The notes below the pieces were generated by a model. That model saw only the letters and a list, made by a program, of their open reading frames with translations. It was not told where the DNA came from and did not search any database. This document shows, one piece after another, positions 32,732-54,891 of a stretch of DNA of 60,136 nt (positions are counted from its first letter, which is position 1; every line of letters begins with the position of its first letter). The stretch lies in sequence record SRR20825006_617. One strand, given 5' to 3'. Both the position numbers and the translations under genes were made by a program.

Positions 32732-33601
32732 ATGACTTCTTTGCCAATCCAGCCACGTAAAGTTGCTTTTGATGTCTCATCAGTGCCGCGGCACTGGAAT
32801 GGCGGTGATCCCGTGCTGACCCGCTTTTTTGACGCCCTCTCGGTACATTTCCCGGAGGGAGAGCGCTTCTTTATCCAGTCAGTGCGTAACTTCAAGGATC
32901 AGGTGACAGATGATCAGCTGATCGAGGACATTCGTCACTTTATTCGCCAGGAAGGTCAGCACGGCATTGTCCATGATCGTTTCAACGATGTGATGGCCAG
33001 CCAGGGCGTGGATGTAGATAAGGTCACTACGAATTTAAGGACGTTTATTCGCACCACACAAAAGTACTTGCCGAAGAAGTATCAGCTCGCCATGACTGCG
33101 GCGTTTGAGCACTTTACGGCAACCTTGGGCGAAACAATGGTCAGCGAGAAAAGCGACATGTTCCGCGAGGCCGACCCGGTAATGAGGGCTCTATTTCTTT
33201 GGCACGGGGTTGAAGAAGTAGAGCACAAGGCTGTGGCCTATGATCTTTATCAGGGAGCGGCTGGGGGGGGCTACCTGACTCGTGCCTCGGCGCTGGTGGT
33301 TGCGACACTGATGGTTCATTTGGTCGTGGCACCGGTATTCTGGAATATGCTCAAGCTTGATGGTGTCACGCGCCAGCCCGGTGTGATTCTGAAGGGTTTG
33401 AACAAACTTTATGGGCGAAAAGGTATTCTCACAGGAATGTTGCCTGATTTTCTTGCCTGGTTTCGTCCCGGGTTTCACCCTTGGGACACCGGTATGCCTG
33501 AGAAGGTTGCCGCCTGGTTGGCAGAGTATGAGGCTCATGGTGATCCAATGCAGGCATCGGAGACCATTTATGGTCCGGATCCTGTGAGAGAGGCAGCCTG
33601 A
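32732..33601 (+). CDS. 'Metal-dependent hydrolase' family protein (PF10118-like), paralogue 1
   Basis: FPEGERFF, QEGQH, FEHFTA, WHGVEEVEHKAVAYD, FHPWD; RBS GGAGG. Confidence 0.85.
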   Translation: MTSLPIQPRKVAFDVSSVPRHWNGGDPVLTRFFDALSVHFPEGERFFIQSVRNFKDQVTDDQLIEDIRHFIRQEGQHGIVHDRFNDVMASQGVDVDKVTTNLRTFIRTTQKYLPKKYQLAMTAAFEHFTATLGETMVSEKSDMFREADPVMRALFLWHGVEEVEHKAVAYDLYQGAAGGGYLTRASALVVATLMVHLVVAPVFWNMLKLDGVTRQPGVILKGLNKLYGRKGILTGMLPDFLAWFRPGFHPWDTGMPEKVAAWLAEYEAHGDPMQASETIYGPDPVREAA

Positions 33602-34602
33602 TGCAGACCAACGATCAGGGTAACCCCGGTGCCTTTGATTTTCGGCACACTCATAGGCCCGGACGCCACTGTGGAAGTTCAGCTATCAGGGATCTTCTGG
33701 AGTTTCATGGGCTTAATTTAACTGAAGCTTTCTGCTTCGGTCTCGGTGCCGGGCTTGGTATTACTTATGTGGAAATACCAGGCACGGACACCCCGTTTAT
33801 TGTCCATGTCCGTTCAATGGGATTTGAGGAAACGGTGTTCTCTACACTGGGCGTGCCGTTTCGCTGGGAAACTTGGCAAGATAAATGTGCTGCCGCCGAT
33901 GCGCTGGATGCCCATCTTGATGCGGGGCGGCCTGCGCTTCTCTTAACTGATATTTTTTACCTTCCTTATTTCAAGAGCAGTACACATTTCCCCGGTCACG
34001 CCATCGTCGCCTGGCAGCGAGCCGAGAAGGGCGAGACGATGCTCGTTAGCGATACCGAGCGCCCAGGGCTTTTAGAGGTGCCTCGTGACAAGTTGGTTGA
34101 AGCCAGATTCTCCTTGTCGCCACCCTTTATCCATCATGGTTCATTGTTCGCACCCGAAAGTGTTTCGGTTCAGGTGTCTGCCGAGAACGTGCGCAGTGCG
34201 ATTGTGAAGAATGCAGATAATCTCCTGCAAGGAAGCAGGAATCACGGTATTCAAGCGCTAACAACTTGGATCCAGGAACTTCCTCGCTGGAAGGCAGTGG
34301 ATAAATGGCAATGGTTGCTCCGTTTCGCCTATCAAGTGATCGAGAAGCGTGGAACGGGGGGCAGCGGCTTTAGAGCGATGTATTCAGAATTTCTCGATGA
34401 AGCGAGTGAAATTGTTCCTGAAATACATGAGGCAGGCTTGGTCGAGTTGATGCGAACGAGTGCTGCGGCATGGTCCGCTCTGGCTGATTGTCTGCGAAAG
34501 GGGTCCGAAAGTGAAACATTCCCTGAAGAGGCAATAACGGACGCCATTGAATCTGTGCGTGTTGCAGAGACCCGGTATGCGGATGCCGCTTCAACATTCT
34601 GA
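33601..34602 (+). CDS. BtrH-N/DUF4872 family protein (papain-like Cys-His acyltransferase/hydrolase)
   Basis: GRHCGSSAIRDLL, FGLGAGL, DIFYLPY...HFPGHAIV, IEKRGTGGSGFRAMY. Confidence 0.75.
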   Translation: MQTNDQGNPGAFDFRHTHRPGRHCGSSAIRDLLEFHGLNLTEAFCFGLGAGLGITYVEIPGTDTPFIVHVRSMGFEETVFSTLGVPFRWETWQDKCAAADALDAHLDAGRPALLLTDIFYLPYFKSSTHFPGHAIVAWQRAEKGETMLVSDTERPGLLEVPRDKLVEARFSLSPPFIHHGSLFAPESVSVQVSAENVRSAIVKNADNLLQGSRNHGIQALTTWIQELPRWKAVDKWQWLLRFAYQVIEKRGTGGSGFRAMYSEFLDEASEIVPEIHEAGLVELMRTSAAAWSALADCLRKGSESETFPEEAITDAIESVRVAETRYADAASTF

Positions 34603-34618
34603 TAAAAAGTTGCTAACT

Positions 34619-35557
34619 ATGACAGCTGAGACATCACTCCCGAGAGAACTGCTTGCCGCAAAGGCTTTTTTTGGTTCAGGGCATCCGTTGTTCAGGGTTT
34701 TTGGTATCGCAATGGATGACATTACCAAAGATGGCGCGGTAATGAGCATGCCTTGTGTGGAAGAGGTTTGTGATCAACAGGGAAAGCTTCATCGGGGAGC
34801 CATCGCTACCTTGCTTGATACGGCATGTGGTTTGGCGATTTTTGTGCGCCTCGGCGACATGCGCCCAATTGCGACAATTGACTTGCGCGTTGATTTCATC
34901 GCTAACCCCGAGGCTGGCGAAGGGGTGGCATGTAATGTCACCTGTTTTGCAGTTGAAGAAAATATTGCCTATGTCCGTGGAGAGGCATTTGGGCGTGATG
35001 GCGGCAATTTGCTGGCGTCGGTATCAGGCAGTTTTGCGATAGGAACGGCAGGCCCGTCCTTTGATCAATCTGTGAATCCTAGCAATAAGAGAGCCCCCTC
35101 CAAGAAAAAAACAATCGATGATGAAGGAATCATCAGCTTCGAAACAGAAAGGGTAACCGCTCTCTCTACTGTGGTCGGCGATGTATCACCATACGAAAAA
35201 TTTCTTGGTATGACGGCTTCGGACGATAACGGCGAAGCAACCTATAAAATGCCGTTTCGCGAGCAGCACATTGGCAACCCTCTGATCAAGACTTTTCATG
35301 GCGGTATTATCGCAAGCTTCGCGGAGCTTGTTGCTGGCGCGCACTTAACAGCGAATCAGACTGAACAAAATAAGCCAGTATGTTCAAGTATGACTCTGGA
35401 TTATTTGCGCCCGGCCTTTGCGGGTACGTTGGTGGCCAAGCCGAACATTATTCGTGAAGGAAAGCGCTTCATTGTGGTTGTTGTGGATGTGTTTCTTGAT
35501 GGCGCCCAGGTTTCCCGAGGTCGCTTCATTTATAAGAGAGCCTTCGCTTCCAGCTAA
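34619..35557 (+). CDS. Tandem PaaI hot-dog thioesterase
   Basis: Two hot-dog units: LHRGAIATLLD...ATIDLRVDF and FHGGIIAS...MTLDYLRP. Confidence 0.8.
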   Translation: MTAETSLPRELLAAKAFFGSGHPLFRVFGIAMDDITKDGAVMSMPCVEEVCDQQGKLHRGAIATLLDTACGLAIFVRLGDMRPIATIDLRVDFIANPEAGEGVACNVTCFAVEENIAYVRGEAFGRDGGNLLASVSGSFAIGTAGPSFDQSVNPSNKRAPSKKKTIDDEGIISFETERVTALSTVVGDVSPYEKFLGMTASDDNGEATYKMPFREQHIGNPLIKTFHGGIIASFAELVAGAHLTANQTEQNKPVCSSMTLDYLRPAFAGTLVAKPNIIREGKRFIVVVVDVFLDGAQVSRGRFIYKRAFASS

Positions 35558-35615
35558 TCCAATCTATAAACAACCCTCCCCCCTTCCTTTTCTGCCTCAA
35601 TAGAGGAGTTCTGTT

Positions 35616-37166
35616 ATGTATATTTCACAGACTTTGCGCCGTGCGGTTCAATTAAACGGCCAAGGTACGGCTACCGTTTTTGCTGGTCGGCGGCAAACCT
35701 GGCGAGAGTTTGAAGACCGTATCGCATGCCTTGCTAACGGGTTGCTAAGTCTGGGCATCAATGCGGGTGACAGGGTTGCCATACTGGCATTAAACAGCGA
35801 TCGCTACCTGGAGTATTTCTATGCAGTGCCGTGGGCCGGTGCGGCAGTGAATCCCGTCAATATTCGGCTCGCACCACCTGAAATCGCCTATACCTTGAAT
35901 GACTCAGGTTCTAAAGTGCTTTTCGTTGATGACACCTTTGCAGCATTGCTGCCATCCCTACAGCCACAGCTTGAGTCTATCAAGCATGTTGTCTTCATGG
36001 GTGAGGGTGAGTGTCCACAAGGGTGTATTGATTATGAATCCCTTGTCGCCAACGCCGGTCGAATCCGTGACGCCAATGCTGGCGGTGACGATCTGGCGGG
36101 GCTGTTTTATACCGGTGGTACCACTGGGCGGTCAAAAGGCGTGATGCTGAGTCATGACAACCTGGTATTCAATGCCCTGAACGTGGTTGCCGAGATGGGC
36201 TATGACAGTGACACCATATATATGCATGCCGGGCCCATGTTCCACTTGGCTGATATGGCCAGCACGTTTGCCGTGACACTGGCTGCGGGGACACATGGCA
36301 TTGTTCCTCGCTTTGATGTTGATGAAGTGCTGGCTTTCATTGAGCAGGAGAAAGTCACGAACACCCTGTTGGTGCCGACCATGGTCAATCTTCTAGCCTC
36401 ATCTGGGCGCATCGCCAATTACGATGTCAGCAGCATAAAACGCATGCTGTATGGCGCCTCGCCAATGCCAGAGGCGGTATTGATTAGTGCTATGGAACAA
36501 ATGCCGACAGTGTCATTTGCTCAGGGCTATGGCCAGACCGAAGCCTCCCCAATCATTACCTCACTCGGGCCAGAACATCACATTCCCGGCGGAGAAAAAT
36601 TACGTAGCGCCGGTCGCGCAGCACTGGGTGTGGAGGTGGTGGTGCTTGATGAAAATGATCAGGTGGTATCTCAAGGTACGGTTGGCGAAATATGTGCGCG
36701 GGGACCAAACGTCATGTTGGGTTACTGGGGAATGGAATCAACAACCGCTGATACCTTGCGCAATGGTTGGCTACATACCGGCGACCTTGGCTACATGGAC
36801 GAGGATGGATTTGTCTTCATCGTTGATCGAGCCAAGGACATGGTAATTAGCGGTGGAGAAAATATTTTCTCTGTTGAAGTTGAAGGTGCCATTTATAGCC
36901 ATCCTGAGGTACAGGAGTGCGCGGTAATTGGTATTCCCGATGAACGCTGGGGTGAAGCTGTGCATGCAATCGTGGTGCTGCGTGAAGGAGAGCACGCCAG
37001 TGAGGCAGAGATTATCGAACATTGCCGTGAAAGAATTGCAGGTTACAAAGTGCCTCGTAGCGTTGATTTTAAGGCAGAGTCGTTGCCGGTGAGTGGGGCA
37101 GGTAAGGTGCTGAAAAACGAACTGCGAGCCCCCTTTTGGGAGAGCAACGGTAAACAGGTTAATTGA
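35616..37166 (+). CDS. Long-chain fatty-acid--CoA ligase
   Basis: YTGGTTGRSKG, GYGQTE, WLHTGD, DRAKDMVISGGENI, GKVLK. Confidence 0.92.
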   Translation: MYISQTLRRAVQLNGQGTATVFAGRRQTWREFEDRIACLANGLLSLGINAGDRVAILALNSDRYLEYFYAVPWAGAAVNPVNIRLAPPEIAYTLNDSGSKVLFVDDTFAALLPSLQPQLESIKHVVFMGEGECPQGCIDYESLVANAGRIRDANAGGDDLAGLFYTGGTTGRSKGVMLSHDNLVFNALNVVAEMGYDSDTIYMHAGPMFHLADMASTFAVTLAAGTHGIVPRFDVDEVLAFIEQEKVTNTLLVPTMVNLLASSGRIANYDVSSIKRMLYGASPMPEAVLISAMEQMPTVSFAQGYGQTEASPIITSLGPEHHIPGGEKLRSAGRAALGVEVVVLDENDQVVSQGTVGEICARGPNVMLGYWGMESTTADTLRNGWLHTGDLGYMDEDGFVFIVDRAKDMVISGGENIFSVEVEGAIYSHPEVQECAVIGIPDERWGEAVHAIVVLREGEHASEAEIIEHCRERIAGYKVPRSVDFKAESLPVSGAGKVLKNELRAPFWESNGKQVN

Positions 37167-37213
37167 GTAATCGATGACCTTGTATTGCGAAATTTATTGG
37201 CTTGGAGGCTTCC

Positions 37214-38374
37214 ATGAATCTGGATTTCAGTAATGACGAAAAAGAATTTCGTAAGAGTATCCGGCAGTGGATGAAGGAAAATGTGCCTGATGATATTCGG
37301 CGCTGTACTGCCCGAGGAGCGATGCCAGACAAGAATATGCAGCAACGATGGGAGCGTTTGCTGGGCAGTCAAGGTTGGCTCACGTCTACTTGGCCAGAAC
37401 AATTTGGTGGCCCAGGGTGGAGTGCAACCCAGCGGTATATTTTCGATCAGGAACGCGCCTCGGCAGGGGCTCCGCCAACAAGTCCTTTTGGTGTGGCCAT
37501 GGTTGGGCCGGTGTTATATACCTTTGGTTCTGAAGCACAGAAGGAACGGTGGTTGCCCGGCATTCAGCGTGGCGAAACGCTATGGTGCCAAGGTTATTCT
37601 GAGCCCAATGCGGGCTCAGATCTGGCCTCGTTAAAAACGCGAGCCACGCGTAATGGCGACCATTATTTGGTTAATGGTCAAAAAATCTGGACGACACAGG
37701 CCCATTGGGCAGACATGATGTTTTGCTTGGTGCGAACGGATAGCACCGTGAAACAGCAGCAGGGTATTTCATTCCTGCTGATCGATATGAAAACCCCCGG
37801 GCTTGAAGTACGGCCGATTTATTCAATTGATGGGCATCATCACCTTAACGAAGTCTATTTTACCGACGTGAAAGTGCCTGTGGAAAATTTGGTGGGTCAA
37901 GAAGGAATGGGGTGGACCATTGCCAAGTTTCTTCTTACCCACGAACGCACCACCATTGCCGGTGTGGCGGATATTCACTACGAAATCAATCGCCTTAAAA
38001 GTGCTATCGATGCGCTACCAACGGAAACAGATAAGCAGTTGGCGGTGCGTCGGTTGGCTGGCTTGGAAGTCGATCTTATGGCACTGGAATACACCAACTT
38101 TCGCACCGTTGCTGCCACAGATGAAGGCAAGCCGTTCGGCCCAGAATCGTCAGGACTGAAAATCAAAGGCACGGAACTACAGCAAAGGGTTTCCCAAGCG
38201 ATGGTGGAAATCGGAGGTTTGATGTCTTTGCCATGGGATAACGAGGAGCCCATTGGGGAGCAAATTTTTAATCAGGCCAGTCGCCGCTATAACTTCCTGC
38301 GTGCGTGCACCATCTATGGTGGATCTAACGAGATCCAGAAAAACGTGTTGGCGAAGATGTTGCTCGGATTGTGA
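37214..38374 (+). CDS. Acyl-CoA dehydrogenase, PimC-like large subunit
   Basis: WCQGYSEPNAGSDLASL, NGQKIWTT, TIYGGSNEIQKN. Confidence 0.88.
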   Translation: MNLDFSNDEKEFRKSIRQWMKENVPDDIRRCTARGAMPDKNMQQRWERLLGSQGWLTSTWPEQFGGPGWSATQRYIFDQERASAGAPPTSPFGVAMVGPVLYTFGSEAQKERWLPGIQRGETLWCQGYSEPNAGSDLASLKTRATRNGDHYLVNGQKIWTTQAHWADMMFCLVRTDSTVKQQQGISFLLIDMKTPGLEVRPIYSIDGHHHLNEVYFTDVKVPVENLVGQEGMGWTIAKFLLTHERTTIAGVADIHYEINRLKSAIDALPTETDKQLAVRRLAGLEVDLMALEYTNFRTVAATDEGKPFGPESSGLKIKGTELQQRVSQAMVEIGGLMSLPWDNEEPIGEQIFNQASRRYNFLRACTIYGGSNEIQKNVLAKMLLGL

Positions 38375-38382
38375 GGTGAAAA

Positions 38383-39498
38383 ATGGATTTCAAGTTACCC
38401 GAAAATACCACCATGATTGCGGATACCGCGCGCCGTTATCTTAAAGACAACTATTCATTTGACAGCTACATTGCACAGTTGAATGAGAGTAATCACCTTG
38501 AAGCGAATCGCTGGCAGGCCATGAATGATTTGGGTTGGTTTGGCCTTCCGTTTGCTGAATCTGTTGGAGGGTATGGCGGCTCATTGCTTGACGTGTGCGC
38601 CATTGTTCAGGAGTTAGGAGCCGCGCTTTGTCTTGACCCTTTTGTCGATTTAATTGTTTCCCCCGGCAAGTTATTGGAGTTCGCCAATACGCCAACATCC
38701 TTGGCGTTGCTTGATCGCATTATTTCTGGTGAGGCACGTGTGGCTTGCGGTCTTTATGACCGGCATGCCGGTTATCACGTGCTGAACCCTTCCTTGAGGC
38801 TAAACGGAGAACGACTTTCCGGGCAGAAGCACGTTGTGTCTGATGGTGGCGTTGCAGACGCCGTGCTCGTCTCCGCTATGTCTGGTGATGAGTTGGCCAT
38901 TGTCGCGCTACCTTTCGACGCCTGTGACGTTGAAAGATATCGACTGCTCGATGGAAGCCGTGCTGCCAGTTTGACGCTTGATGATGTGCTCATCACAGAC
39001 GAAATGGTTTTGTGTCGTGGTGATGCGGCAAAGCAAGCGGTTTCTGCCTGGTTCGATTATCTGTGCGCATTGGACTGCGCACGTATGTACGGCGCCTGCC
39101 GAGAGGTGTATCAGGCCACTCTGGAATACGCTCGAACGCGTAAACAGTTTGGTACAACGATTGGCAGTTTTCAGGTAATCCAGCACTACCTTGTTGATGC
39201 GTTTATTGATCTCCAGCAGCTGGAATCCATGCTCTTGATGGTGTCAGTAAAAGGAGAGAGCGCAAACGTCTGTGAGCGCGGGCGCGCGACAGCGGCGGCA
39301 AAGGCTTACTACGCAAACCGGGCCGTTGGTATCACTCAGCAAGGTATCCAGATCCATGGTGGCGTTGGTGTTACGGAAGAGCTGAACATTGGCCATTACT
39401 TCCGTCTGGTGACACATGCATCATTGAGTCATGGCGACCGAGAGCACCACATGTCACGGTTTATTCAGGCGGGGGAGAAGCAAAATGAAGTCGTTTGA
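38383..39498 (+). CDS. Acyl-CoA dehydrogenase, PimD-like small subunit
   Basis: YARTRKQFG...IGSFQVIQH, QIHGGVGVTEE; lacks the SEP..GSD motif. Confidence 0.82.
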   Translation: MDFKLPENTTMIADTARRYLKDNYSFDSYIAQLNESNHLEANRWQAMNDLGWFGLPFAESVGGYGGSLLDVCAIVQELGAALCLDPFVDLIVSPGKLLEFANTPTSLALLDRIISGEARVACGLYDRHAGYHVLNPSLRLNGERLSGQKHVVSDGGVADAVLVSAMSGDELAIVALPFDACDVERYRLLDGSRAASLTLDDVLITDEMVLCRGDAAKQAVSAWFDYLCALDCARMYGACREVYQATLEYARTRKQFGTTIGSFQVIQHYLVDAFIDLQQLESMLLMVSVKGESANVCERGRATAAAKAYYANRAVGITQQGIQIHGGVGVTEELNIGHYFRLVTHASLSHGDREHHMSRFIQAGEKQNEVV

Positions 39499-45518: not shown

Positions 45519-45538
45519 ATTTGGCCAAACAACCAAAT
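45519..45538. promoter_or_regulatory. 20-bp palindromic operator, copy 2
   Basis: ATTTGGCCAAACAACCAAAT immediately upstream of the 45512 operon. Confidence 0.65.
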
Positions 45539-48600: not shown

Positions 48601-48754
48601 GGCCAGGATAAGGGTAAGAAAAAATTAATGTCTCTGGTGTGCTCCAGGGATTGCTTACATCGCCCTGATCGCCACCGCACCCGGTCAGAAGGGCTGCTAT
48701 GGCGACCGCCAGACTAATCAGAAACTGGTGGATTGTGATGGGGTTATTATTCAT
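45674..48754 (-). CDS. Large lipoprotein with Ig-like domains (AupB-like)
   Basis: Lipobox LTGC; repeated Big_5-like P..G...ILRFS / ILNFNKPLD / RVIFSRSID motifs; follows the FadL-like gene. Confidence 0.75.
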   Translation of the reverse strand: MNNNPITIHQFLISLAVAIAALLTGCGGDQGDVSNPWSTPETLIFSYPYPGQTEVPATAPVILRFSSALEQEVIDDIDSRLQLVSDTDGNTVMVDYQVVDNGRGLALYPQSRLAPAEAYHLVVNDDGLGAIDDNSVARVRFRTAGSQAGASQTMGSGSFTLLSATPLDQPSLLEPIDDASHPNDMSTFRMSFNQTVDPTSTAYGETGSVQLRDNLGKLVPASLFLQGRYLTLDPDQDLKPVEHTLTIAGLRAQTTGEQLPEYNRTFVPEATLPRATSVLKVGSLGAEQPGLVSTLTGNPINQVPVQSFVLGDESFTGLSGDLAADLAFAPNFPNAVPLRVPAGSVLRGTPVDVNILGEIPSGLETGEVTITILSDANGYLIPNPFSDSPSVPRYALLNMDAAMTAAGQEPNAALSQNLLNVQVAGLAVVKDGVLVLDAVSVVEPDVLGLEKASGLLSFRMEAYQNQRQAPAPSQDTRPLQLQSWAPGETFQPNARPGDPVILNFNKPLDPASVFLDGAVQVSVDDVVKTYPIRHDGATIIIGGDILQHGKDVELTLTSLLRDTQGNPLNQDQTLNIRLPDFVLPNGSTNELRAPLVAAVFPGYPCALTDVDLTGERETWRNGRCVGGKNSDPLYPVPNMFKDFSIRVIFSRSIDGDTVNDQTFVVEHFDTVNNVWQPVNGRHKVLSQRIEFLPNSPWRVGDLYRYTLHSEEGAPNCGVNAICSNDGAPLQTRQISQSSSTAPGLRQGGPDLTNHFVVTGEEDRITRVSLRSLPVADVNANLSLDDNEQGAVPDGNGGAIADANYLQLRLKNKSGVITHANIGCGIGDDCPEKKFAFVGSGALQAGVSQYEPDVTINRRLIDSDPMTSNEVTGAVIAKVFPTVLSTTSVFLEARALGLITIPLDTGPLVLRLGYENNQPITGYITETPDGPWFSTTFDLMVDAPELEPRLIIELGHDIRSKVITGVTLEGPLRFVDDGRLILKVRNPDPLIIPANIDLLGIGLAGVELEVPPLGVDLTFTFLPVKDF

Positions 48755-48788
48755 TGCTCTTCTCCTGGTATTAATCGCATGCCTGTTG

Positions 48789-50150
48789 TTAAAACTTTAG
48801 CGACAGGGAGGAAGAAAATACGTTTATTTCACCATCAGCCCTTACCGTTTCATAAGGGGCTGGATCGGTGGAAGAGTTGATGGAGGTCAATTCGAAATCA
48901 GCTTCATCCAGCATTTGATACTGGTAAGCGAAGGAGAGTTCTAATGGCATATCTATTATTGGCGCGCTGGACAGACGGTAGCTGGCACCCAGACCGAAAA
49001 CCTTTTTATCGGTGTCAAGATAGTTAACGTCCTGGGATCGGCTGGATTTTAAAGGTGAGTCCTCCAGGGCTGCGCCGGCAAAGAGTTTCATGGACTCCGA
49101 CCACTGATAGCTAACGCCAATTCGGGGAATGGTGATGTCGTCAAACGCTAGATTAGCCTGATCGCGAATAGTATCGTCGGCAAACTCGCTTTCAAGCGCA
49201 GACCAATTGTGCTGCTCAATGCCTGCCGTCAATTCGAATTTGCCAACGGGAAGCAAAATGGCTGCGCCGAGAACTTCAGGTTGATAGGTATCAATTGTAC
49301 TAAGCGCTAGGCTCAGGCCTGGTTCAGGGATAACTCCCGGCACAACCACATTGGCATCCACGGATACCTCATAGCTACTTTCCCCCCGCCAGAAAAGAGC
49401 CAGCTCCATCTTATCCATTCCAAAAGGCATGCACTCGCTTGTACCGCAAAACATTTCTCCAGAGCGGATATTGATACCTAGTGCCGGTGATAGGGATGGA
49501 GAGGCTTCCAGGGAAAGTTTTTCAGAGTCTGTGTTGCCGCCAAGGTCTGAAACTGCTTCCAGGTTGGCTTTGGCCTGGAGGGTAAGACGTGCTGATGCGC
49601 CGACGTCAACGCCCCTCAGGACGTTGCTGATAGCGCCACCAAAGGCGAGATAAAGTGGCTGAGATTCATAGCGTAGAAACTGCCCTTTCTGGCTGGTATT
49701 GGCCTGATAGGGCAATAGGTTGGATGTGTATTGGTCTACACCCACGTTCAGGCCAAAGTAAATGGGCTTGTCGATGCTGGAAATGCCGGCGACGCGGCTT
49801 TTGAAGCCGATTAATAATAGTTCGGAACTGGTGTCAGAGAGGATATCATTCTCTCGCTCCAAAGGGTCTGTTCCTCCCAGTGATTTAGCACGTAATTCCT
49901 GGTCGCCATACTGCACAATGACTCCCAGTTCGCCCTCCGGGGAGCGGGCCATGGCGGCCGGGTTGTAGTACACCGACCAGCTGTTGGATGCAAAAGGACT
50001 GAATGCCAAGGCAGTGCCGGCATTCATCGGGCCTAGCCCATAAGTGCTCGCTCCGTCGCCAGCACCGCCAATGGCCAAGCCGGGTGAGAGCAATGCTGTA
50101 GTGCACGTGAAGAAAAGGAGAGGTAACCGTTTTGTTTTTTTTGCAGACAT
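48789..50150 (-). CDS. FadL/OmpP1-family outer-membrane hydrophobic-compound channel (AupA-like)
   Basis: Signal peptide, YYNPAAM hatch motif, amphipathic beta-strands, terminal Phe. Confidence 0.82.
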   Translation of the reverse strand: MSAKKTKRLPLLFFTCTTALLSPGLAIGGAGDGASTYGLGPMNAGTALAFSPFASNSWSVYYNPAAMARSPEGELGVIVQYGDQELRAKSLGGTDPLERENDILSDTSSELLLIGFKSRVAGISSIDKPIYFGLNVGVDQYTSNLLPYQANTSQKGQFLRYESQPLYLAFGGAISNVLRGVDVGASARLTLQAKANLEAVSDLGGNTDSEKLSLEASPSLSPALGINIRSGEMFCGTSECMPFGMDKMELALFWRGESSYEVSVDANVVVPGVIPEPGLSLALSTIDTYQPEVLGAAILLPVGKFELTAGIEQHNWSALESEFADDTIRDQANLAFDDITIPRIGVSYQWSESMKLFAGAALEDSPLKSSRSQDVNYLDTDKKVFGLGASYRLSSAPIIDMPLELSFAYQYQMLDEADFELTSINSSTDPAPYETVRADGEINVFSSSLSLKF

Positions 50151-50211: not shown

Positions 50212-50231
50212 GTTTGGTTAAACAACCAATA
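50212..50231. promoter_or_regulatory. 20-bp palindromic operator, copy 3
   Basis: GTTTGGTTAAACAACCAATA about 60 bp upstream of the aupA-like start. Confidence 0.6.
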
Positions 50232-50484: not shown

Positions 50485-52128
50485 TCACTGAGAATTGTTA
50501 TCTGTTTGTTTTGCCGGAATGCCCTTCTCTGGCAGCTGGGGATGTGGCTCACAGGCTTGTCTCCCGCCGTCGTGTCTGCTGGGAGTGTGCCCGGCCAGTA
50601 CACTGAATCGGTAGTGATCCATCGGTAAATGCTTGGCTCGCCACAGCATTTCCAGAGAGGTAGAGGGCCGCAGCATTGGCGCGTCACCATGATGGTCGAA
50701 GTAATAACTGTTCGACAGCGCGCAGTTGTGGTTAAGGAACACGGTGTTTTGCTGGCGTTTCTGGATATTGCGGAAATACGCGTCATGGACGGACTGACGT
50801 ATTTCCACTTGGCTGGCTCCACGTCGGTTGGCTTCGCGAATACAGCGAGAGAGGTGGATGGCATTCCCTTCGACCATCTTGAAGTAAGAGGTGCCGATAA
50901 GGGCATAGGGACCGAGCATGATGTAAAAGTTCGGGTAGCCCGGAATGGTCAACCCTTCATAGGCCTGGTAACGGTAGTCATGCCAGAAATCGCCCAAATT
51001 GATGTTGTTGCTGCCGATGACGTCGAACGAGGGAATATTTCCTTTCTCGAAGGTTTTGTAACCGGTGGCGAGGATCAAGGTATCGATACGCCGTGAGCGG
51101 CCGTCCTGGGTGGTGATGCCGCGGGACGTAATACGCTTGATCGGGGTCGTGACAAGCTCAACGTTGTTTCGGGCAAAGGTTCGGAAATAGTCGTTGGAAA
51201 ACGTTGGCCTTTTGCACCCGAAGCCGTATTTCGGTGTCAGTGCTTGCCACAGGTCCTGGCGGTTGGGCAGCTGTTCGCGCAGGTTGTTTATGCCCGCCTT
51301 TTCACACATGCGAACCAGCCAAGGGGCCTGCCGGTAATATATTGCGGAAAGCACCATCAGGGTTTCGCTGACGGTGTCGGTAGCGCCGCGAAGGCTGCGT
51401 TGCAAGCCCGGTACGGTTCGGAACAATACCTTGAGCCAGCCAGGCAGAGTCTGATCCGGCTTCTTCAGCACCCAGATGGGGGTGCGCTGGTAGACGTCAA
51501 GTTGACGAGCCTGGCGGGCAATTTTCGGAATCAGTTGCACTGCAGTGGCGCCAGTGCCTATTACCGCTACTCGCTTGTCACTAAGATCAAGGTCATCTGG
51601 CCAGCGTGCAGTGTGAATGACATTGCCCTGGAACGTATCAAGCCCTTCAATATCTGGCATCTTGGGTGATATCAAACCGCCACAGGCCGAGACAATATGG
51701 CGTGCACTAAGTCGCCTGCCATCCGTAAGATCGATCAACCAGACATGGCTGTCGAGATCAAAACGGGCGCTAGCGACTTCGACACCAAAGCGAATCAGTG
51801 GGTAGATGCCATACTTGCTTGTTACCTGTCTTGTATACTGGTAAAGCTCGTTTCCCGGCGCAAAAACGCGAGACCAATTTGCGTTTTGTTCGAAGGAAAA
51901 TGAATAGGTAAACGAGGTAATGTCGACAGCGATTCCCGGATAACGGTTGTCGCGCCAGGTTCCTCCCACATCCTTGCTTCGCTCAAGGATCAAGATATCT
52001 TTGATGCCATCGGCACGCAGCTGGATTGCCGCACCAATTCCAGAAATTCCCGCGCCGATGATAATGACTTCATGATCAGGAGTAACGCTGGGACGAGGGT
52101 TATGGATTGCAACAGCAGCCATATTCAT
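50485..52128 (-). CDS. Baeyer-Villiger monooxygenase
   Basis: GAGISG, GGTWRDNRYPG, BVMO fingerprint FQGNVIHTARWP, GTGATA, ATGY. Confidence 0.9.
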   Translation of the reverse strand: MNMAAVAIHNPRPSVTPDHEVIIIGAGISGIGAAIQLRADGIKDILILERSKDVGGTWRDNRYPGIAVDITSFTYSFSFEQNANWSRVFAPGNELYQYTRQVTSKYGIYPLIRFGVEVASARFDLDSHVWLIDLTDGRRLSARHIVSACGGLISPKMPDIEGLDTFQGNVIHTARWPDDLDLSDKRVAVIGTGATAVQLIPKIARQARQLDVYQRTPIWVLKKPDQTLPGWLKVLFRTVPGLQRSLRGATDTVSETLMVLSAIYYRQAPWLVRMCEKAGINNLREQLPNRQDLWQALTPKYGFGCKRPTFSNDYFRTFARNNVELVTTPIKRITSRGITTQDGRSRRIDTLILATGYKTFEKGNIPSFDVIGSNNINLGDFWHDYRYQAYEGLTIPGYPNFYIMLGPYALIGTSYFKMVEGNAIHLSRCIREANRRGASQVEIRQSVHDAYFRNIQKRQQNTVFLNHNCALSNSYYFDHHGDAPMLRPSTSLEMLWRAKHLPMDHYRFSVLAGHTPSRHDGGRQACEPHPQLPEKGIPAKQTDNNSQ

Positions 52129-53084
52129 GATGCAACCTCAACTATGGCGCTATCGCTAGCATTGACCGTTTGGGATGGGGCTTTGCCGACGTTATTGCTG
52201 GTCAGATACTTTCCCAGAATTCGGACGATGGTAGGGAAGTCCTGCTTTGCCTCTGGTAGCAAAAAGGTGAATACGGGCCACACGTGCGGCATATCATCGC
52301 GCTCCAGAACCTGCACGGGCACCCCCGCATCTCGCGCGCATTGTGCTGCTGCATGGGTATCGTCGCGCAGACACTCTTCGCTACTGACAGTGAAAAGTAG
52401 AGGGGGCAAGCCGGTGAAATCCGCGGTGATTGGTGAGGCATACGGGTGAGCGGGGTCCGCGCCGGCCAGATAGATATCCGTTGCCACCTCAATCATGCCA
52501 TGGGAAAGCATGGTATCGCTGTCGCTATTCGCCTGTCTGGACATCAGGGTGCCTCGCGCATCCGATGCCGGCGAAATGGCGAGGGCGCAAGCCGGCATTT
52601 TCAGCAGCTGATCACGGGCACGCAGCAATGTGACTAACGTCAGGTTGCCTCCCGCAGAGTCTCCCGCAATGACCACAGGGCGAGGGTCTGCGATCAGTTC
52701 ACGATACACATTAAAGGCGTCATCCGTTGCTGCCGGGAAGGGGTGCTCAGGGGCTAGTCGGTAATCCGGAAGAAAGACCCGCGCATTCAGGGCGTGAGCC
52801 AAACGGCCACAAAAGTGGTGATAGGTATCAAGCCGCCCGCCGATGAAGGCGCCACCATGCAGGTAGAGTATGGTGATTTGTGGGTCTGCGGTGCCTAGCC
52901 AGTGGCCAGCTATTCCTGCAACCTTGCCTCGCTTGAGTCGCACTCCGCGTGGCAGCAGAGAGGGGGCCAAAGGCGCGTTCATCACCCTGCGAAGATGTCT
53001 TACCAGTTTGTCCGGGTCGCGTATATCACGCTTCATGCCGGCGCGAAAAAGTAGCTTCAAAATTGTTGTAGGAATGGAGGCCAT
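52125..53084 (-). CDS. HSL-family esterase/lipase
   Basis: HGGAF, YRLAPEHPFPA, GDSAGG, MPHVW. Confidence 0.92.
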   Translation of the reverse strand: MASIPTTILKLLFRAGMKRDIRDPDKLVRHLRRVMNAPLAPSLLPRGVRLKRGKVAGIAGHWLGTADPQITILYLHGGAFIGGRLDTYHHFCGRLAHALNARVFLPDYRLAPEHPFPAATDDAFNVYRELIADPRPVVIAGDSAGGNLTLVTLLRARDQLLKMPACALAISPASDARGTLMSRQANSDSDTMLSHGMIEVATDIYLAGADPAHPYASPITADFTGLPPLLFTVSSEECLRDDTHAAAQCARDAGVPVQVLERDDMPHVWPVFTFLLPEAKQDFPTIVRILGKYLTSNNVGKAPSQTVNASDSAIVEVAS

Positions 53085-53122
53085 ATTGAATTCCTTGCGT
53101 GTTTCGTTTCCACTAATGCGGT

Positions 53123-53950
53123 TTAATCAGCCAGCATTCTGTAAGCTTCGCCAATCGCGCGGGCGTATAGTCGTGGCGTCAGGCGTTTCAACCGCCAGGC
53201 AAGCCGGCCGTCAATTTGTGGCAGCATGTAAAGCTCACCTCGATCAAGGGCACTGAGGGTCTGTCGGGCCACCTGGTCGGCGTTGGTGAGGGCATAGCGG
53301 GTCATCGCTGAACGGGCAAAGTCACGGCGACGTTCAGGCAGGCGCCCATTCTCGACGATATTGGTCGGGACCACGGTTGGGCACAGGGCCGTGATTTTTA
53401 CGCCGGTACCGGTCAGTTCAGAAGACAGCGTTTCGGACAGGGCCAGCACCCCCGCCTTGGTGACGTTGTAGGCGGCCATTTCCGGGGCGGACCCGAATGC
53501 GGCAGCAGAGGCCACATTGATGATGCCTCCATAGCCCAGATCGCGAAGCTGAGGGGCAAAATAATGGCAGCCGTGAATAACCCCCCATAGATTGACGTTC
53601 ATGCACCAGTGCCAATCTTCAAGTGACACCTCGCCGATTGGGCCACCGAGGCCGACGCCGGCGTTGTTGATTACCAGGGTTACCGGCCTGCCGAGCAAAG
53701 GCTCGGCATTTTCCGCCAGGTATGCCATCTGTTTTTCATCGCCGACATCACACCCCAGGGCTACCGCGTGAGTACCGAGTGCTCGCAGGCTGATCGCCAC
53801 CTGTTCGGCGCGCTCTTCATTGATATCGACACACAGTACCGAACCGCCTCGACGGGCAACTTCGTAAGCAAAGCTACGACCGATGCCGCTACCCGCCCCG
53901 GTGATGACAGCTGCCGCCTGAGTTGACGGGTGCAAGGGTTTCTTTTTCAT
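53123..53950 (-). CDS. Short-chain dehydrogenase/reductase
   Basis: TGAGSGIG, NNAG, YNVTK; ATGA overlap with the upstream gene. Confidence 0.9.
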   Translation of the reverse strand: MKKKPLHPSTQAAAVITGAGSGIGRSFAYEVARRGGSVLCVDINEERAEQVAISLRALGTHAVALGCDVGDEKQMAYLAENAEPLLGRPVTLVINNAGVGLGGPIGEVSLEDWHWCMNVNLWGVIHGCHYFAPQLRDLGYGGIINVASAAAFGSAPEMAAYNVTKAGVLALSETLSSELTGTGVKITALCPTVVPTNIVENGRLPERRRDFARSAMTRYALTNADQVARQTLSALDRGELYMLPQIDGRLAWRLKRLTPRLYARAIGEAYRMLAD

Positions 53951-54891
53951 GCCTGCCCCCATGCGGGTTCAGGTTGTGGCGTTTCGAATGTACCGTGTAC
54001 ATTGTTGGCTCGGTGGTCTCTGAGCGCTTGATAGGCCTTATGAGGGTCGCCAGTTCTTTCGTAGGCGCGTTTCCAGATCCGGATTACATCACGGTTATCG
54101 TCATCCCACGGGTGGAAAGTGGGGGAGAAATAGGGGGGCACGCCAGCGAGTACCTTGGAAAGAATGCCGGGACGCCAGAACAGGACTTTGGTCATTTTGG
54201 CGGCGGACCACAAATTCAGAATTTGACGATCCTTGTAGAGCAGATAGGTCTGGTTGCCGATCATAATGGGGAAGCCCAGGGCAATGGCCAGTAGCATGCC
54301 ACTGATACGCAGTCGGTAACTGCGGTAGCCACCACCACTGGCATCGACGAAGACGTCATAACTGACGCTCTTGTGCTCGGTTTCTTCGACAAAGTGCCAG
54401 TAGAGCATGGCACGCAAATCCGGGTGGGTTTCGTCAAACAGCTCCGGGTGCTCAAGCAGTACCGAGGAAATAATGGCCGTGAAATGTTCAAACGCCGCTG
54501 CGATGGAGCTCTGCATATCGTCACTGAGGCGGTGTTGGAGTTGCTTACGGATCAGCTTGAACACGCCTTCAACCTTGTCGATGGGAACCCCGTGTTGCAC
54601 GCCGATGGCGTTCATTTCATCGTGCTCACGAGCATGAATGCGCTCCTGGCGAATGAATTCTTTAGCTGCGTTCAGCACTTCTGGATCGTCAAGCTTGCCA
54701 AGCTGCCGTCTTGCAGAATTCATCACCCAGCGTTCACCGTCGGGGACGGCGGCGAGAATGGCATTCATCCAGTGAGTGGACCACGGGTCGTTGCGAAACC
54801 AGTGGCGAGCCACGTTTTCGATGTTCATGGGAAAGTGAATGTCACGGGTTACAACCTCGTCGTAACCAATCTTGCGGTTTGCCAGAGCCAT
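53947..54891 (-). CDS. 'Metal-dependent hydrolase' family protein (PF10118-like), paralogue 3
   Basis: VPDGERWV, QERIHAREH, FEHFTA, WHFVEETEHKSVSYD, FHPWD. Confidence 0.85.
   Translation of the reverse strand: MALANRKIGYDEVVTRDIHFPMNIENVARHWFRNDPWSTHWMNAILAAVPDGERWVMNSARRQLGKLDDPEVLNAAKEFIRQERIHAREHDEMNAIGVQHGVPIDKVEGVFKLIRKQLQHRLSDDMQSSIAAAFEHFTAIISSVLLEHPELFDETHPDLRAMLYWHFVEETEHKSVSYDVFVDASGGGYRSYRLRISGMLLAIALGFPIMIGNQTYLLYKDRQILNLWSAAKMTKVLFWRPGILSKVLAGVPPYFSPTFHPWDDDNRDVIRIWKRAYERTGDPHKAYQALRDHRANNVHGTFETPQPEPAWGQA

Follow-up and report, generated by a model that had tools for sequence, protein, structure and literature searches.

Three genes annotated as metal-dependent hydrolases lie in a 60,136-nt stretch of DNA from an oil-degrading marine bacterium (SRR20825006_617; the whole stretch is referred to here as the window), and the question they raise is which reaction their products catalyze. 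Since these products are almost certainly iron-containing, oxygen-activating enzymes and appear to work alongside ketone-oxidizing enzymes, they are good candidates for a step still missing from long-chain hydrocarbon degradation. An earlier note on this DNA had placed the paralogues at 32732, 42117 and 54891. Open reading frames were found at these positions, all belonging to Pfam family PF10118 (Metal_hydrol, "predicted metal-dependent hydrolase") and with scores well in excess of the 33.2-bit cut-off:

32732..33601, plus strand, paralogue A (P0001), 289 aa, PF10118 284 bits, predicted ferritin-like di-iron protein heading the acyl-CoA-type operon A
41233..42117, minus strand, paralogue B (P0002), 294 aa, PF10118 278 bits, final gene of operon B, ligand set intact
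53947..54891, minus strand, paralogue C (P0003), 314 aa, PF10118 249 bits, heading operon C

The two other paralogues are 37 and 32% identical to paralogue A in sequence alignment. Paralogue A has a 96% identical, syntenic counterpart in Alcanivorax sp. DSM 26293 (locus L001), and paralogue C is 89% identical to a protein of Isoalcanivorax pacificus W11-5; GGGAG stands 7 nt ahead of the paralogue C ATG. No functional or biochemical study of any PF10118 member was found in the literature. The paralogues share the motif (P0001 numbering) P-x-G-E44-R, Q73-E74-x-x-H77-x-x-x-H81, E126-H127-F-T-A and W157-H158-x-x-E161-E162-x-E164-H165-K, so that the E/ExxH/E/ExxH-type pattern reported earlier was recovered in all three. 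E44, Q73, E74, H77, H81, E126, H158, E161, E162 and H165 are invariant columns in an alignment of 150 PF10118 sequences (the three window proteins and 147 representatives of 50%-identity clusters), which indicates that the motif is not due to chance, and the same residues are retained in 94-95 of the 95 family ORFs from 82 genome or plasmid loci and the window. A scan of the three window proteins revealed exactly two ExxH motifs in each, and neither HExxH nor HxHxDH.

AlphaFold (AF2) models of paralogues A and C were all-helical and of very high confidence (pLDDT 96.4 and 94.1, respectively). Among the Foldseek matches listed against the PDB, ferritin-like di-metal proteins accounted for 43 of 45 for paralogue A and 43 of 43 for paralogue C. 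These were led by R2lox and RNR R2 subunits, and also included CmlI, AurF, VlmB, sMMO, an ADO-like protein (6d9f, both paralogues) and an acyl-ACP desaturase (2uw1, paralogue C), with phenol hydroxylase and sMMO among the weak ones. Neither a zincin-like nor any other hydrolase fold occurred among these 45 + 43 matches. Since none of them reached E <= 0.001 (best E 0.17 and 0.038 for the two models, TM 0.35-0.53) and sequence searches of the PDB with the paralogues gave no match, the fold assignment draws on the consistency of many weak matches and not on a strong one. Sub-threshold Pfam matches of the 150 members were to di-iron families only: AurF (34/150, best E 5.6e-6), COQ7 (12/150) and Rubrerythrin (9/150), with no recurrent hydrolase family among them. 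Window paralogues scored 17.4 and 15.7 bits with the AurF model (PF11583; cut-off 29.6), which did not match paralogue C; NCBIfam hydrolase models did not match the window proteins, and a Pfam search of the paralogues found no rubredoxin-like domain.

The portion of PMC11775713 used here gives the AurF ligands as E101, E136, H139, E196, H223, E227 and H230; the ExxH and HxxxExxH spacing is identical in PF10118. Judging by helix positions in the model, the metal site of P0001 would comprise E44 (helix 27-52), E74/H77 (helix 61-90), E126 (helix 115-136) and H158/E162/H165 (helix 149-165), a predicted 3-His/4-carboxylate set with the intra-helix spacing of AurF. The metal content is possibly Mn/Fe instead of di-iron, and the conserved hydrophobic helix at about residues 181-209 may serve in membrane docking or line a lipid tunnel. 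Because the Pfam and structural matches were of the ferritin-like type and the ligand spacing equals that of the AurF 3-His/4-Glu site, the name "hydrolase" is very likely a misnomer, in agreement with the ferritin-fold proposal of the earlier note. We are thus highly confident that the three paralogues are single-subunit, four-helix-bundle di-iron carboxylate oxidases or oxygenases with a 3-His/4-carboxylate site, and PF10118 is a new, uncharacterized branch of a known superfamily.

Operon B has the order alpha/beta-hydrolase, flavin monooxygenase, SDR, PF10118, and operon C the order PF10118, SDR, esterase, flavin monooxygenase; Pfam assignments therefore bear out that two of the three paralogues sit with these gene types. 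The genes of both operons and those between them are:

42159..43025, minus strand, SDR of operon B (Pfam)
43036..44547, minus strand, AlmA-like type I Baeyer-Villiger monooxygenase (BVMO) of operon B, 503 aa (Pfam FMO-like; fingerprints FGGDVIHPQHWP and GGTWDLFRYPGIRSD)
44544..45512, minus strand, alpha/beta-hydrolase, putative esterase, heading operon B (Pfam)
45674..48754, minus strand, Big_5 Ig-like protein, 1026 aa (Pfam)
48789..50150, minus strand, FadL/TodX-type outer-membrane transporter for hydrophobic compounds (Pfam)
50485..52128, minus strand, second type I BVMO, 547 aa, ending operon C (Pfam; fingerprints FQGNVIHTARWP and GGTWRDNRYPGIAVD)
52125..53084, minus strand, Abhydrolase_3 (hormone-sensitive-lipase type) esterase of operon C (Pfam, 191.6 bits)
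53123..53962, minus strand, SDR of operon C (Pfam)

The link to these partners was strengthened by the Baeyer-Villiger fingerprints in both flavoenzymes, by the same association in distant phyla and by natural fusions. Operons with PF10118, SDR, BVMO and esterase genes occur in Gammaproteobacteria, Betaproteobacteria and Actinobacteria, the association being found in Aquabacterium (L010), Rhodanobacteraceae (L059), Oleiphilaceae (L074), L030 and L003, as well as on a Mycolicibacterium chubuense plasmid and in Ralstonia. In a sample of 92 relatives that favors the 80 best matches to paralogue A, a flavin monooxygenase lies within 4 kb in 10 and in none of the other 82, and in 26 no gene of the types seen in the window is close by; the relatives' neighborhoods show no conserved ferredoxin or reductase next to the PF10118 gene. 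Of 13 long PF10118 members found, 11 are fusions to flavin-monooxygenase parts. Nine BVMO-PF10118 fusion clusters, at 71-87% identity, form one lineage that retains both the BVMO fingerprints and the di-iron ligands, one further fusion is independent and of FMO type, and one has the domain order reversed; a further long member is fused to an SDR. The operon B BVMO and the flavin domain of these natural fusions share 46-48% identity.

Operon A differs in content, comprising after its PF10118 gene:

33601..34602, plus strand, BtrH_N + DUF4872 protein, acyl-thioester transferase/hydrolase-like (Pfam)
34547..35557, plus strand, tandem 4HBT/PaaI-type thioesterase (Pfam)
35616..37166, plus strand, acyl-CoA synthetase (AMP-binding; Pfam)
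37202..38374 and 38383..39498, plus strand, two acyl-CoA dehydrogenases (Pfam)
39431..41086, plus strand, GMC oxidoreductase, AlkJ-like alcohol dehydrogenase/oxidase (Pfam)

Such genes suggest acyl-CoA, not alkanes, as the substrate. A BtrH_N gene also adjoins A-type PF10118 in L001-L004 and L082, the latter with PaaI thioesterases in the equivalent position. The module of PF10118, BtrH_N and PaaI thioesterase is kept in L001-L004 and on the Acinetobacter plasmid pAR3, and a thioesterase lies near PF10118 on a Mycobacterium sp. SMC-4 plasmid.

Putative operators and the genes beyond operon C were located as follows:

32663..32682, no strand, perfect palindrome ATTTGGTCAGTTGACCAAAT, putative operator, 50 nt upstream of paralogue A
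45519..45538, no strand, at the head of operon B, copy of the operon A palindrome differing at 3 positions (chance expectation 0.02 matches)
54903..54933, no strand, 13-nt inverted repeat, putative operator, between paralogue C and the divergent TetR gene
55073..55678, plus strand, TetR-family regulator, divergent from operon C (Pfam)
55748..56791, minus strand, AraC regulator (Pfam)
56914..57234, plus strand, 2Fe-2S ferredoxin (Pfam)
57249..58661, plus strand, cytochrome P450 (Pfam)
58541..60136, plus strand, GMC oxidoreductase, running past the window end (Pfam)

The suggestion that each paralogue lies in an operator-bearing operon was thus partly confirmed: operons A and B have the palindrome and its copy, and the inverted repeat upstream of paralogue C is a different one. 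TetR homologues (52-63% identical) adjoin PF10118 in L002, L004 and L006, inside A-type modules. By its gene content, 55748..60136 is a neighboring alkane-hydroxylase-type unit; the window ferredoxin belongs to its conserved AraC-Fdx-P450 part, which adjoins A-type PF10118 in L002 and on plasmid pAR3. An AraC regulator with the architecture of that beside the window P450 adjoins PF10118 in 39 of the 92 relatives.

Expression data were available for Acinetobacter venetianus RAG-1, whose ORF_1533 and ORF_1534 bear the PF10118 motifs (supplement rows; visual comparison with family member P0246). These ORFs were up 44.2- and 21.7-fold on dodecane versus acetate, and 143.5- and 27.95-fold on dodecane versus dodecanol; neither appears among the genes listed as more than 10-fold up on dodecanol versus acetate, and the pair showed no co-regulation with almA. 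The paralogues probably act in a pathway of AlmA-type BVMO, SDR and esterase for catabolism of long aliphatic chains. The best overall explanation, to which we give somewhat less than even weight, is that they are di-iron oxidases or oxygenases hydroxylating alkanes or alkyl chains ahead of SDR, BVMO and esterase. The reduced di-iron center would activate O2 and convert an unactivated in-chain or sub-terminal CH2 to a secondary alcohol, which the SDR would oxidize to a ketone, the BVMO would turn into an ester and the esterase would split; as a specific reaction, such in-chain or sub-terminal hydroxylation is the leading but tentative choice. Electrons could come from a housekeeping or neighboring ferredoxin system, the source used by other single-subunit di-iron oxygenases, or from the partner flavoprotein itself, which is conceivable given the natural fusions. 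According to the cited parts of PMC12388405 and PMC11784139, the substrates of AlmA enzymes are 2-ketones, not alkanes, and for Acinetobacter, hydroxylases acting sub-terminally are "scarcely documented"; PF10118 is a candidate to fill this gap ahead of AlmA. As far as described in the cited part of PMC12704756, BioE is a single-subunit ferritin-like di-iron oxygenase for which a generic reducing system supports the oxidation of saturated acyl chains, and by analogy would be a precedent for an enzyme that has no reductase of its own. Several points count against alkane hydroxylation: the 82 of 92 relatives without a nearby flavin monooxygenase and the 26 with none of the partner gene types, the lack of a conserved adjacent ferredoxin or reductase, the operon A genes with their conserved BtrH_N and thioesterase partners, the separation of the RAG-1 pair from almA and the fact that the established 3-His/4-Glu sites (AurF, CmlI) are known for arylamine oxygenation and not for hydroxylation of unactivated C-H bonds.

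A serious rival, though distinctly less probable, is that the di-iron center, at least in paralogue A, attacks saturated long-chain acyl-CoA or acyl-ACP within the chain by hydroxylation, desaturation or cleavage, as do BioE and the acyl-ACP desaturases, the oxidized chain then being processed by the SDR/BVMO/esterase set or by acyl-CoA dehydrogenases. The acyl-CoA synthetase, dehydrogenases, thioesterase and BtrH_N enzyme of operon A argue for it, as do the conserved module, the BioE precedent, the SMC-4 plasmid thioesterase, the desaturase match 2uw1 and, as a weak lead, Atlas neighbors including clusters with FA_desaturase_2 (scores 0.81). Against it, the RAG-1 pair responds to alkane and not to alkanol, though alkanol too yields acyl-CoA, and the PF10118 ligands are unlike the 2-His/4-carboxylate set of BioE (cited part of PMC12704756). 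It is more doubtful still that PF10118 is a direct partner of the BVMO and not an upstream hydroxylase: oxidant or electrons might reach it from the flavoprotein, as flavodoxin NrdI feeds the di-metal site of NrdF, or its substrate might be the ester made by the BVMO, cleaved oxidatively beside the ester oxygen, for instance, or it might scavenge H2O2 released by uncoupled turnover in the manner of rubrerythrin. Fusions more often join subunits or consecutive steps; the covalent BVMO-PF10118 fusions represent at least two independent lineages, and the proposed hydroxylase and BVMO steps are not consecutive. The missing dedicated reductase and the Rubrerythrin matches fit this partnership too, but most sampled relatives have no flavin monooxygenase nearby, operons B and C already hold an esterase, there is no rubredoxin-like domain in the paralogues and the RAG-1 pair is induced without almA.

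Two further readings appear very improbable. An N-oxygenase of the AurF/CmlI kind, with an aliphatic or aromatic amine as substrate, would agree with the 3-His/4-Glu spacing, with AurF as the commonest secondary Pfam match and with CmlI and AurF among the Foldseek matches listed; against this, the AurF scores stay below cut-off, the neighboring genes in the window are for catabolism and lipids, none of them being amine-forming or biosynthetic, and the family distribution leans towards hydrocarbon and lipid degraders. The annotated function, a metal-dependent hydrolase of, for example, esters or lactones, draws on the Pfam and RefSeq name and on the position beside ester-forming BVMOs, and is contradicted by the motif, fold and family searches described above and by the alpha/beta-hydrolases already encoded in the operons.

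Among known systems, PF10118 shares with AurF/CmlI (arylamine N-oxygenases) a predicted ferritin-like four-helix core, the seven-residue pattern E…ExxH…E…HxxxExxH (AurF ligands as given in the part of PMC11775713 used) and a single polypeptide without dedicated reductase, CmlI reaching TM 0.53 with the paralogue C model. It differs in its catabolic lipid/alkane context instead of antibiotic biosynthesis, in identity (about 13-14% in structural alignments, with Pfam scores under the AurF cut-off) and in the additional invariant H81, E161, Q73 and H249 and the hydrophobic helix. R2lox and RNR R2, the top Foldseek matches, are likewise all-helical with about 290 aa, but TM values are just 0.35-0.50 (E >= 0.038), and their site is 2-His/4-carboxylate, whereas PF10118 has a third His four residues ahead of the second ExxH. 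R2lox, which has no assigned function, binds a long-chain fatty acid, uses Mn/Fe and carries a Tyr-Val cross-link. BioE and cyanobacterial ADO, small single-subunit di-iron enzymes oxidizing saturated long chains with a generic reductant, resemble the enzyme type proposed for PF10118. In the cited part of PMC12704756, BioE cleaves C14-C18 acyl-CoA/ACP and has six ligands (E26, E53, H56, E125, E155, H158); these ligands set it apart by their spacing, and its context is biosynthetic (biotin), not catabolic.

Soluble multicomponent di-iron monooxygenases start sub-terminal alkane oxidation, as propane monooxygenase does with AcmA/AcmB in Gordonia, and that route of di-iron hydroxylase, alcohol dehydrogenase, BVMO and esterase has the pathway logic proposed for PF10118. 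Such systems are built from alpha, beta and gamma subunits and depend on a reductase and a coupling protein, whereas PF10118 is one gene of about 290 aa; no genes for these partners were found in the window or in the relatives' neighborhoods. AlmA, the flavin "long-chain alkane monooxygenase" now shown in the cited passages to be a BVMO, is an unrelated flavoprotein, and PF10118 would supply a different step; AlmA-type enzymes and PF10118 nevertheless share operons, are fused in some bacteria, and both belong to the gene repertoire of alkane degraders.

Three genes of the window encode proteins that match Pfam family PF10118 (Metal_hydrol, annotated as "metal-dependent hydrolase"), all of them above the gathering cut-off of 33.2 bits:

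32732-33601, plus strand, PF10118 paralogue A (P0001), Pfam PF10118 at 284 bits
41233-42117, minus strand, PF10118 paralogue B (P0002), Pfam PF10118 at 278 bits
53947-54891, minus strand, PF10118 paralogue C (P0003), Pfam PF10118 at 249 bits

Paralogues B and C are 37 % and 32 % identical to paralogue A, and as far as their sequences tell the three are old duplicates. No NCBIfam model matched the window paralogues. The Glu/His motif quoted in the earlier note was found in all three, and reads, in the numbering of P0001 used throughout, P-x-G-E44-R; Q73-E74-x-x-H77-x-x-x-H81; E126-H127; W157-H158-x-x-E161-E162-x-E164-H165. By motif count, each protein contains exactly two ExxH motifs and one HxxxExxH, the latter lying in the last ligand helix as HGVEEVEH, HALEELEH, and HFVEETEH. 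Using a profile of the three window proteins, 4,028 clusters (50 % identity) were retrieved at E <= 0.001, and 1,112 at E <= 1e-30. A family alignment was made from the window proteins and 147 of the 150 best representatives, P0056, P0131, and P0243 being left out as partial matches. In these 150 sequences E44, Q73, E74, H77, H81, E126, H158, E161, E162, H165, and P250 were invariant, and H127, E164, K166, D171, R184, and H249 were conserved in at least 90 %. The same conservation of the candidate ligand columns was seen in 94-95 of 95 family ORFs, of which three are those of the window and 92 come from 82 loci on genomes or plasmids.

Searching PDB sequences with the 3-sequence and 150-sequence profiles gave one chance match at E 3.1 and none, respectively. 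AlphaFold2 models were obtained for paralogue A (all-helical; pLDDT 96.4, pTM 0.93; 150-sequence alignment) and paralogue C (pLDDT 94.1, pTM 0.91; 100-sequence alignment). The conserved residues are borne on four long helices: 27-52 (E44), 61-90 (E74, H77, H81), 115-136 (E126, H127), and 149-165 (H158, E161, E162, H165), so that in the models two E…ExxH ligand pairs (E44 with E74xxH77, and E126 with E162xxH165) lie on the four core helices. When the models were compared with the PDB by Foldseek, ferritin-like di-metal carboxylate proteins accounted for 43 of the 45 matches listed for A and 43 of 43 for C, including R2-like ligand-binding oxidases, RNR R2, CmlI, AurF, VlmB, an ADO-like protein, sMMO, phenol hydroxylase, and acyl-ACP desaturase. 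A heme-oxygenase-like di-iron oxidase fold was considered and rejected, TenA-like proteins being only two of the 45 matches listed for A and none of the 43 for C. The matches were remote (best E 0.17 for A and 0.038 for C, none <= 0.001; TM 0.35-0.53; identity 8-16 %), which places PF10118 on a separate branch of the superfamily and not within a solved family. In independent agreement with this fold, the only recurrent secondary Pfam matches among the 150 members (E <= 0.1) were to di-iron families: AurF in 34 (best 5.6e-6), COQ7 in 12, Rubrerythrin in nine, and Ferritin-like in one. Neighbours in the ESM Atlas fell in ferritin-like, FA_desaturase_2, Rubrerythrin, and AurF clusters, a weak lead given that their scores (0.79-0.81) are often reached by chance.

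According to an excerpt of PMC11775713, one iron of AurF is bound by E101, E136, H139, and H223, and the second by E196, E227, and H230. This pattern, E…ExxH…E…HxxxExxH, has exactly the intra-helix spacing of PF10118. We infer that in PF10118 the Glu and His side chains of the models would converge on a dinuclear site, and that Fe (or Mn/Fe) at this site would activate O2. A prediction of a homodimer with four Fe ions, made without use of an alignment, scored 0.01, which speaks neither for nor against such a site. The earlier note had called a ferritin fold for the three paralogues, and this call was right, as judged from the helical models with their ferritin-like matches, the di-iron secondary Pfam matches, and the AurF spacing. 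In each paralogue a single 19-residue stretch is strongly hydrophobic (Kyte-Doolittle 2.22, 2.05, and 1.86); it lies on a long helix at about 181-209, which suggests a possible role in membrane docking or as a lipid tunnel.

Each paralogue belongs to a different gene cluster, the content of which was assigned by Pfam:

Operon A, plus strand: PF10118-A, BtrH_N/DUF4872, tandem 4HBT thioesterase, acyl-CoA synthetase, two acyl-CoA dehydrogenases, GMC oxidoreductase
Operon B, minus strand: alpha/beta-hydrolase, flavin monooxygenase, SDR, PF10118-B
Operon C, minus strand: PF10118-C, SDR, Abhydrolase_3 esterase, flavin monooxygenase, with a TetR gene divergent beside it
Farther along from operon C: AraC, 2Fe-2S ferredoxin, P450, GMC oxidoreductase
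32663-32682: perfect palindrome ATTTGGTCAGTTGACCAAAT, 50 nt upstream of gene A
45519-45538: copy of the palindrome with 3 mismatches, at the head of operon B

The flavin monooxygenases of operons B and C both carry two motifs that we take to be type I Baeyer-Villiger fingerprints. With these Baeyer-Villiger monooxygenases (BVMOs), operons B and C each hold genes for the three final steps of the classical sub-terminal pathway, from secondary alcohol to ketone, to ester, and to alcohol plus acid. The palindrome of operon A was spotted by reading the sequence and confirmed by a pattern search. The motif that operons A and B have in common, ATTTGGTCA-NN-TGACCAAAT (0.02 matches expected by chance), suggests that one repressor may control both; the inverted repeat of operon C is another one. 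A single TetR gene is present nearby (55073-55678), and it shares 52-63 % identity with TetR genes located inside A-type modules of other genomes. Between operons B and C (45674-50150) there are genes for a 1,026-aa Big_5 Ig-like protein and a FadL-type outer-membrane channel, and on Marinobacter adhaerens pHP-187 (locus L085; L-numbers denote loci in other genomes or plasmids) Ig-like-domain proteins and an OmpA protein flank a PF10118 gene. Together, these proteins may form a cell-surface system for taking up hydrophobic substrates.

The first half of the window (1-30000) looks, from its gene content, like a mobile defence island, followed by a long ORF next to operon A:

1603-2453, PrlF/YhaV toxin-antitoxin pair (Pfam)
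4990-9119, YqaJ, DUF932, RadC, and Gp3-like recombination directionality factor (Pfam)
9760-13428, 1,222-aa ORF with no Pfam match
13547-17169, OLD-type ATPase and UvrD helicase pair, resembling Gabija
18642-25357, Wadjet JetA-D set
25339-26187, WYL regulator with the Wadjet set
26398-28024, DUF6088/AbiEii
29060-29905, IS3-type transposase
30107-32434, minus strand, 775-aa ORF, Pfam match only in the C-terminal 127 residues (DctM, TRAP transporter large permease)

The 775-aa product may be a fused TRAP permease, or its remainder may be an unrecognised domain.

The genomic context of the family was analyzed in the best 80 of at least 605 tblastn matches to paralogue A, together with two plasmid loci. 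A neighbour counted as a partner only when it resembled a protein of the window (phmmer E <= 1e-10, ORFs of at least 150 aa), so the fractions that follow are biased and are not family-wide estimates. A tree of the 95 ORFs puts each of the three window genes in a different clade, and the conserved partners differ from clade to clade. A-type genes occur with BtrH_N and thioesterase genes, often together with a TetR gene and adjoining an AraC-ferredoxin-P450 unit (L001-L004). C-type genes occur with SDR and flavin monooxygenase genes (L003, L030), and the wider clade around them includes L074 and a Mycolicibacterium chubuense plasmid on which TetR/PF10118 is followed by an SDR, two flavoproteins, and an alpha/beta-hydrolase. 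B-type genes group with L003 and L006. The association with flavoprotein, SDR, and hydrolase-type genes recurs in Aquabacterium (L010, in the order FMO, hydrolase, SDR, PF10118), in Rhodanobacteraceae (L059), and in Ralstonia (flavoprotein … hydrolase, PF10118). Among the 92 non-window ORFs of this biased sample, ten have a flavin monooxygenase within 4 kb and 26 have no window gene type nearby; 39 lie beside an AraC regulator (Arabinose_bd plus HTH_18) with the architecture of the one beside the window P450. Most sampled relatives stand alone next to such an AraC regulator, which counts against the pathway proposed below, and no conserved ferredoxin or reductase adjoining PF10118 was seen in the sampled loci.

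Plasmid pAR3 of Acinetobacter radioresistens (L082, 1-13713) carries an AraC-ferredoxin-P450-ferredoxin reductase unit and a PF10118-TetR-BtrH_N-two PaaI thioesterases module, flanked by two copies of a Tn3-family transposase gene; the whole set looks like a composite transposon in which a putative alkane-hydroxylase unit is joined to an A-type module. The PF10118 match of pAR3 (33.1 % identity) was found on six further Acinetobacter plasmids among the 25 matches listed. Chromosomes of Acinetobacter baumannii (H3, H5, and H6, filed as plasmids) have up to 8-9 separate PF10118-matching places, one of which is a tandem pair directly downstream of tuf (L086). Tandem pairs were also observed at L019, L025, L030, L036, L037, L064, and L066, and three genes in a row at L034. 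Other neighbours were an RPE65-type carotenoid/stilbene cleavage oxygenase with a TetR gene (L024:7850-9304) and a 1,124-aa patatin-like phospholipase (L026:7873-11247), both in Burkholderiales, and a GntR plus aminotransferase (MocR-type) regulator in Marinobacter suaedae (L079:5375-6820). BioE, a di-iron oxygenase, likewise has a regulator of the MocR type, according to an excerpt of PMC12704756, which may be a coincidence.

A family-profile search gave 13 matches among proteins of at least 638 residues. In nine of these (P0272-P0280, 789-795 aa, 71-87 % mutual identity), a BVMO resembling the flavin BVMO AlmA forms the N-terminal portion, and PF10118 follows as the C-terminal domain. The BVMO portion shares 46-48 % identity with the operon-B enzyme and keeps both fingerprints; the PF10118 portion shares 42-43 % with paralogue A, and its ligand motifs are likewise preserved. 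That the frame of this lineage has stayed open through about 28 % divergence argues against gene-calling artefacts. Independently of that lineage, P0281 (752 aa) links an FMO-type flavoprotein to PF10118 and is only 26 % identical to the others; P0282 joins PF10118 and a flavoprotein in reverse order, and P0283 and P0284 combine PF10118 with an SDR and with an aminotransferase domain, respectively. No other evidence speaks as strongly as these fusions for the di-iron protein and the BVMO working together.

Expression data bearing on the family were found for Acinetobacter venetianus RAG-1. In the transcriptome study PMC5074533, ORFs 1533 and 1534 are listed as "metal-dependent hydrolase"; by eye and by short-motif look-up, their sequences in the supplement have the family motifs and a close likeness to the family member P0246. 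The tables give an increase of 44.2-fold and 21.7-fold, respectively, in dodecane versus acetate, and of 143.5-fold and 27.95-fold in dodecane versus dodecanol, where ORF 1533 ranks second, above both AlkM genes (PMC5074533). Neither ORF figures among the genes listed as rising more than 10-fold in dodecanol versus acetate, and almA shows no induction in that experiment (PMC5074533). These fold changes indicate that the alkane itself induces ORFs 1533 and 1534, as it does alkane hydroxylase genes, and independently of almA.

Based on these results, we tentatively propose that PF10118 proteins hydroxylate alkanes or alkyl chains at an in-chain or sub-terminal CH2. The PF10118 di-iron enzyme would produce the secondary alcohol, on which SDR, BVMO, and esterase would then act. 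This hydroxylase reading fits a stated gap: excerpts of PMC12388405 (see also PMC11784139) report that Acinetobacter AlmA oxidises 2-decanone and 2-dodecanone and not octacosane, and describe sub-terminal hydroxylases as "scarcely documented". Neither is the lack of a dedicated reductase fatal to an oxygenase, since BioE, which cleaves C14-C18 acyl-CoA/ACP and is a ferritin-like di-iron oxygenase with a single subunit, uses a generic reducing system (PMC12704756, in excerpt). The earlier note had placed the three proteins at the first step of in-chain oxidation; this idea is plausible and now better grounded, through the clustering and fusion with BVMOs and the alkane induction of homologues, the oxidation chemistry being the part that we infer. 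Counting against hydroxylation, the 3-His/4-Glu sites known to us oxygenate arylamines, not C-H bonds. An N-oxygenase is nevertheless very improbable: AurF and CmlI have an arylamine substrate and a biosynthetic cluster, whereas the window neighbours of PF10118 are catabolic lipid/alkane genes. Equally improbable is a true hydrolase, the function under which the family is annotated, no hydrolase fold being present among the Foldseek matches listed and no hydrolase Pfam family being recurrent.

A broader claim, for which the chances are rather low, is that PF10118 constitutes a new class of single-subunit di-iron alkane hydroxylase feeding AlmA-type BVMOs, with the partner flavoprotein as the direct supplier of electrons or activated oxygen, a role that the natural fusions suggest. 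Such a class would provide the in-chain/sub-terminal hydroxylase for Alcanivorax, Acinetobacter, Marinobacter, mycobacteria, and others, and would explain why almA is needed for growth on long-chain alkanes despite AlmA acting only on ketones. A serious rival, though also of rather low probability, is the oxidation of acyl-CoA or acyl-ACP thioesters, as by BioE or acyl-ACP desaturases; operon A and its conserved partners point to these substrates. Hydroxylation and Baeyer-Villiger oxidation are not consecutive steps, and the fusions therefore fit at least as well a direct partnership, in which the flavoprotein would deliver electrons or peroxide, or the di-iron protein would act on the ester or on stray H2O2. 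We regard this as unlikely.

No paper giving the fold or function of PF10118 was found in the full-text literature, the search covering neither supplements nor most subscription journals. By name, PF10118 appeared in lanthipeptide-network papers only; UCP07580/IPR016516/COG3687 and Metal_hydrol gave no full-text matches, and "metal-dependent hydrolase" combined with almA and alkane, Alcanivorax, or Baeyer-Villiger gave no functional work. Papers using that term for Mycobacterium tuberculosis, Acinetobacter baumannii, or Rhodococcus concerned other hydrolases, and the ferritin-like/diiron/alkane literature yielded the BioE and AlmA papers, none on this family. AlmA, long named a long-chain alkane hydroxylase, is a Baeyer-Villiger enzyme according to excerpts of PMC11784139 and PMC12388405. 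A di-iron oxidase that is an operon partner of AlmA-type enzymes, in some bacteria a fusion partner too, and that is alkane-induced more than 100-fold is a candidate for the sub-terminal step that is concrete and cheap to test. Should PF10118 instead be an acyl-CoA oxidase or a BVMO partner, the ferritin-like oxygenases would still gain a reaction of a new type or a new pairing of flavin with di-iron. Reassigning this large family, labelled "metal-dependent hydrolase" throughout databases, would also correct a widespread annotation error and bear on the biodegradation of oil and polyethylene wax.

Among known enzyme classes, AurF/CmlI (PF11583) have a third His ligand within HxxxExxH (H223, E227, and H230 in AurF), a motif that the window proteins carry as well; P0001 and P0002 score 17.4 and 15.7 bits, below the family cut-off of 29.6 bits, and P0003 gives no match. 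R2lox proteins were the best Foldseek matches among those listed, weak ones (TM 0.35-0.50, as TMq or TMt; E 0.038-1.1), and on the side of BioE/cADO-type enzymes Foldseek listed weak matches to the ADO-like proteins 6d9f (E 0.086-0.44) and 2oc5 (E 1.0). Multicomponent di-iron monooxygenases differ in that their beta/gamma subunit, coupling-protein, and reductase genes are absent from the window operons and from 32 Pfam-annotated loci. AlkB-type enzymes have several transmembrane helices, whereas each window protein has one hydrophobic segment, and no window protein matched FA_desaturase in Pfam. Zincin and MBL hydrolases were rejected, a motif search finding neither HExxH nor HxHxDH in any of the three window proteins. 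We class PF10118 as a new branch, so far uncharacterised, of the ferritin-like di-iron oxidase superfamily; it falls below the AurF family cut-off and is without a close solved relative, and its existing Pfam function name is contradicted by the evidence.
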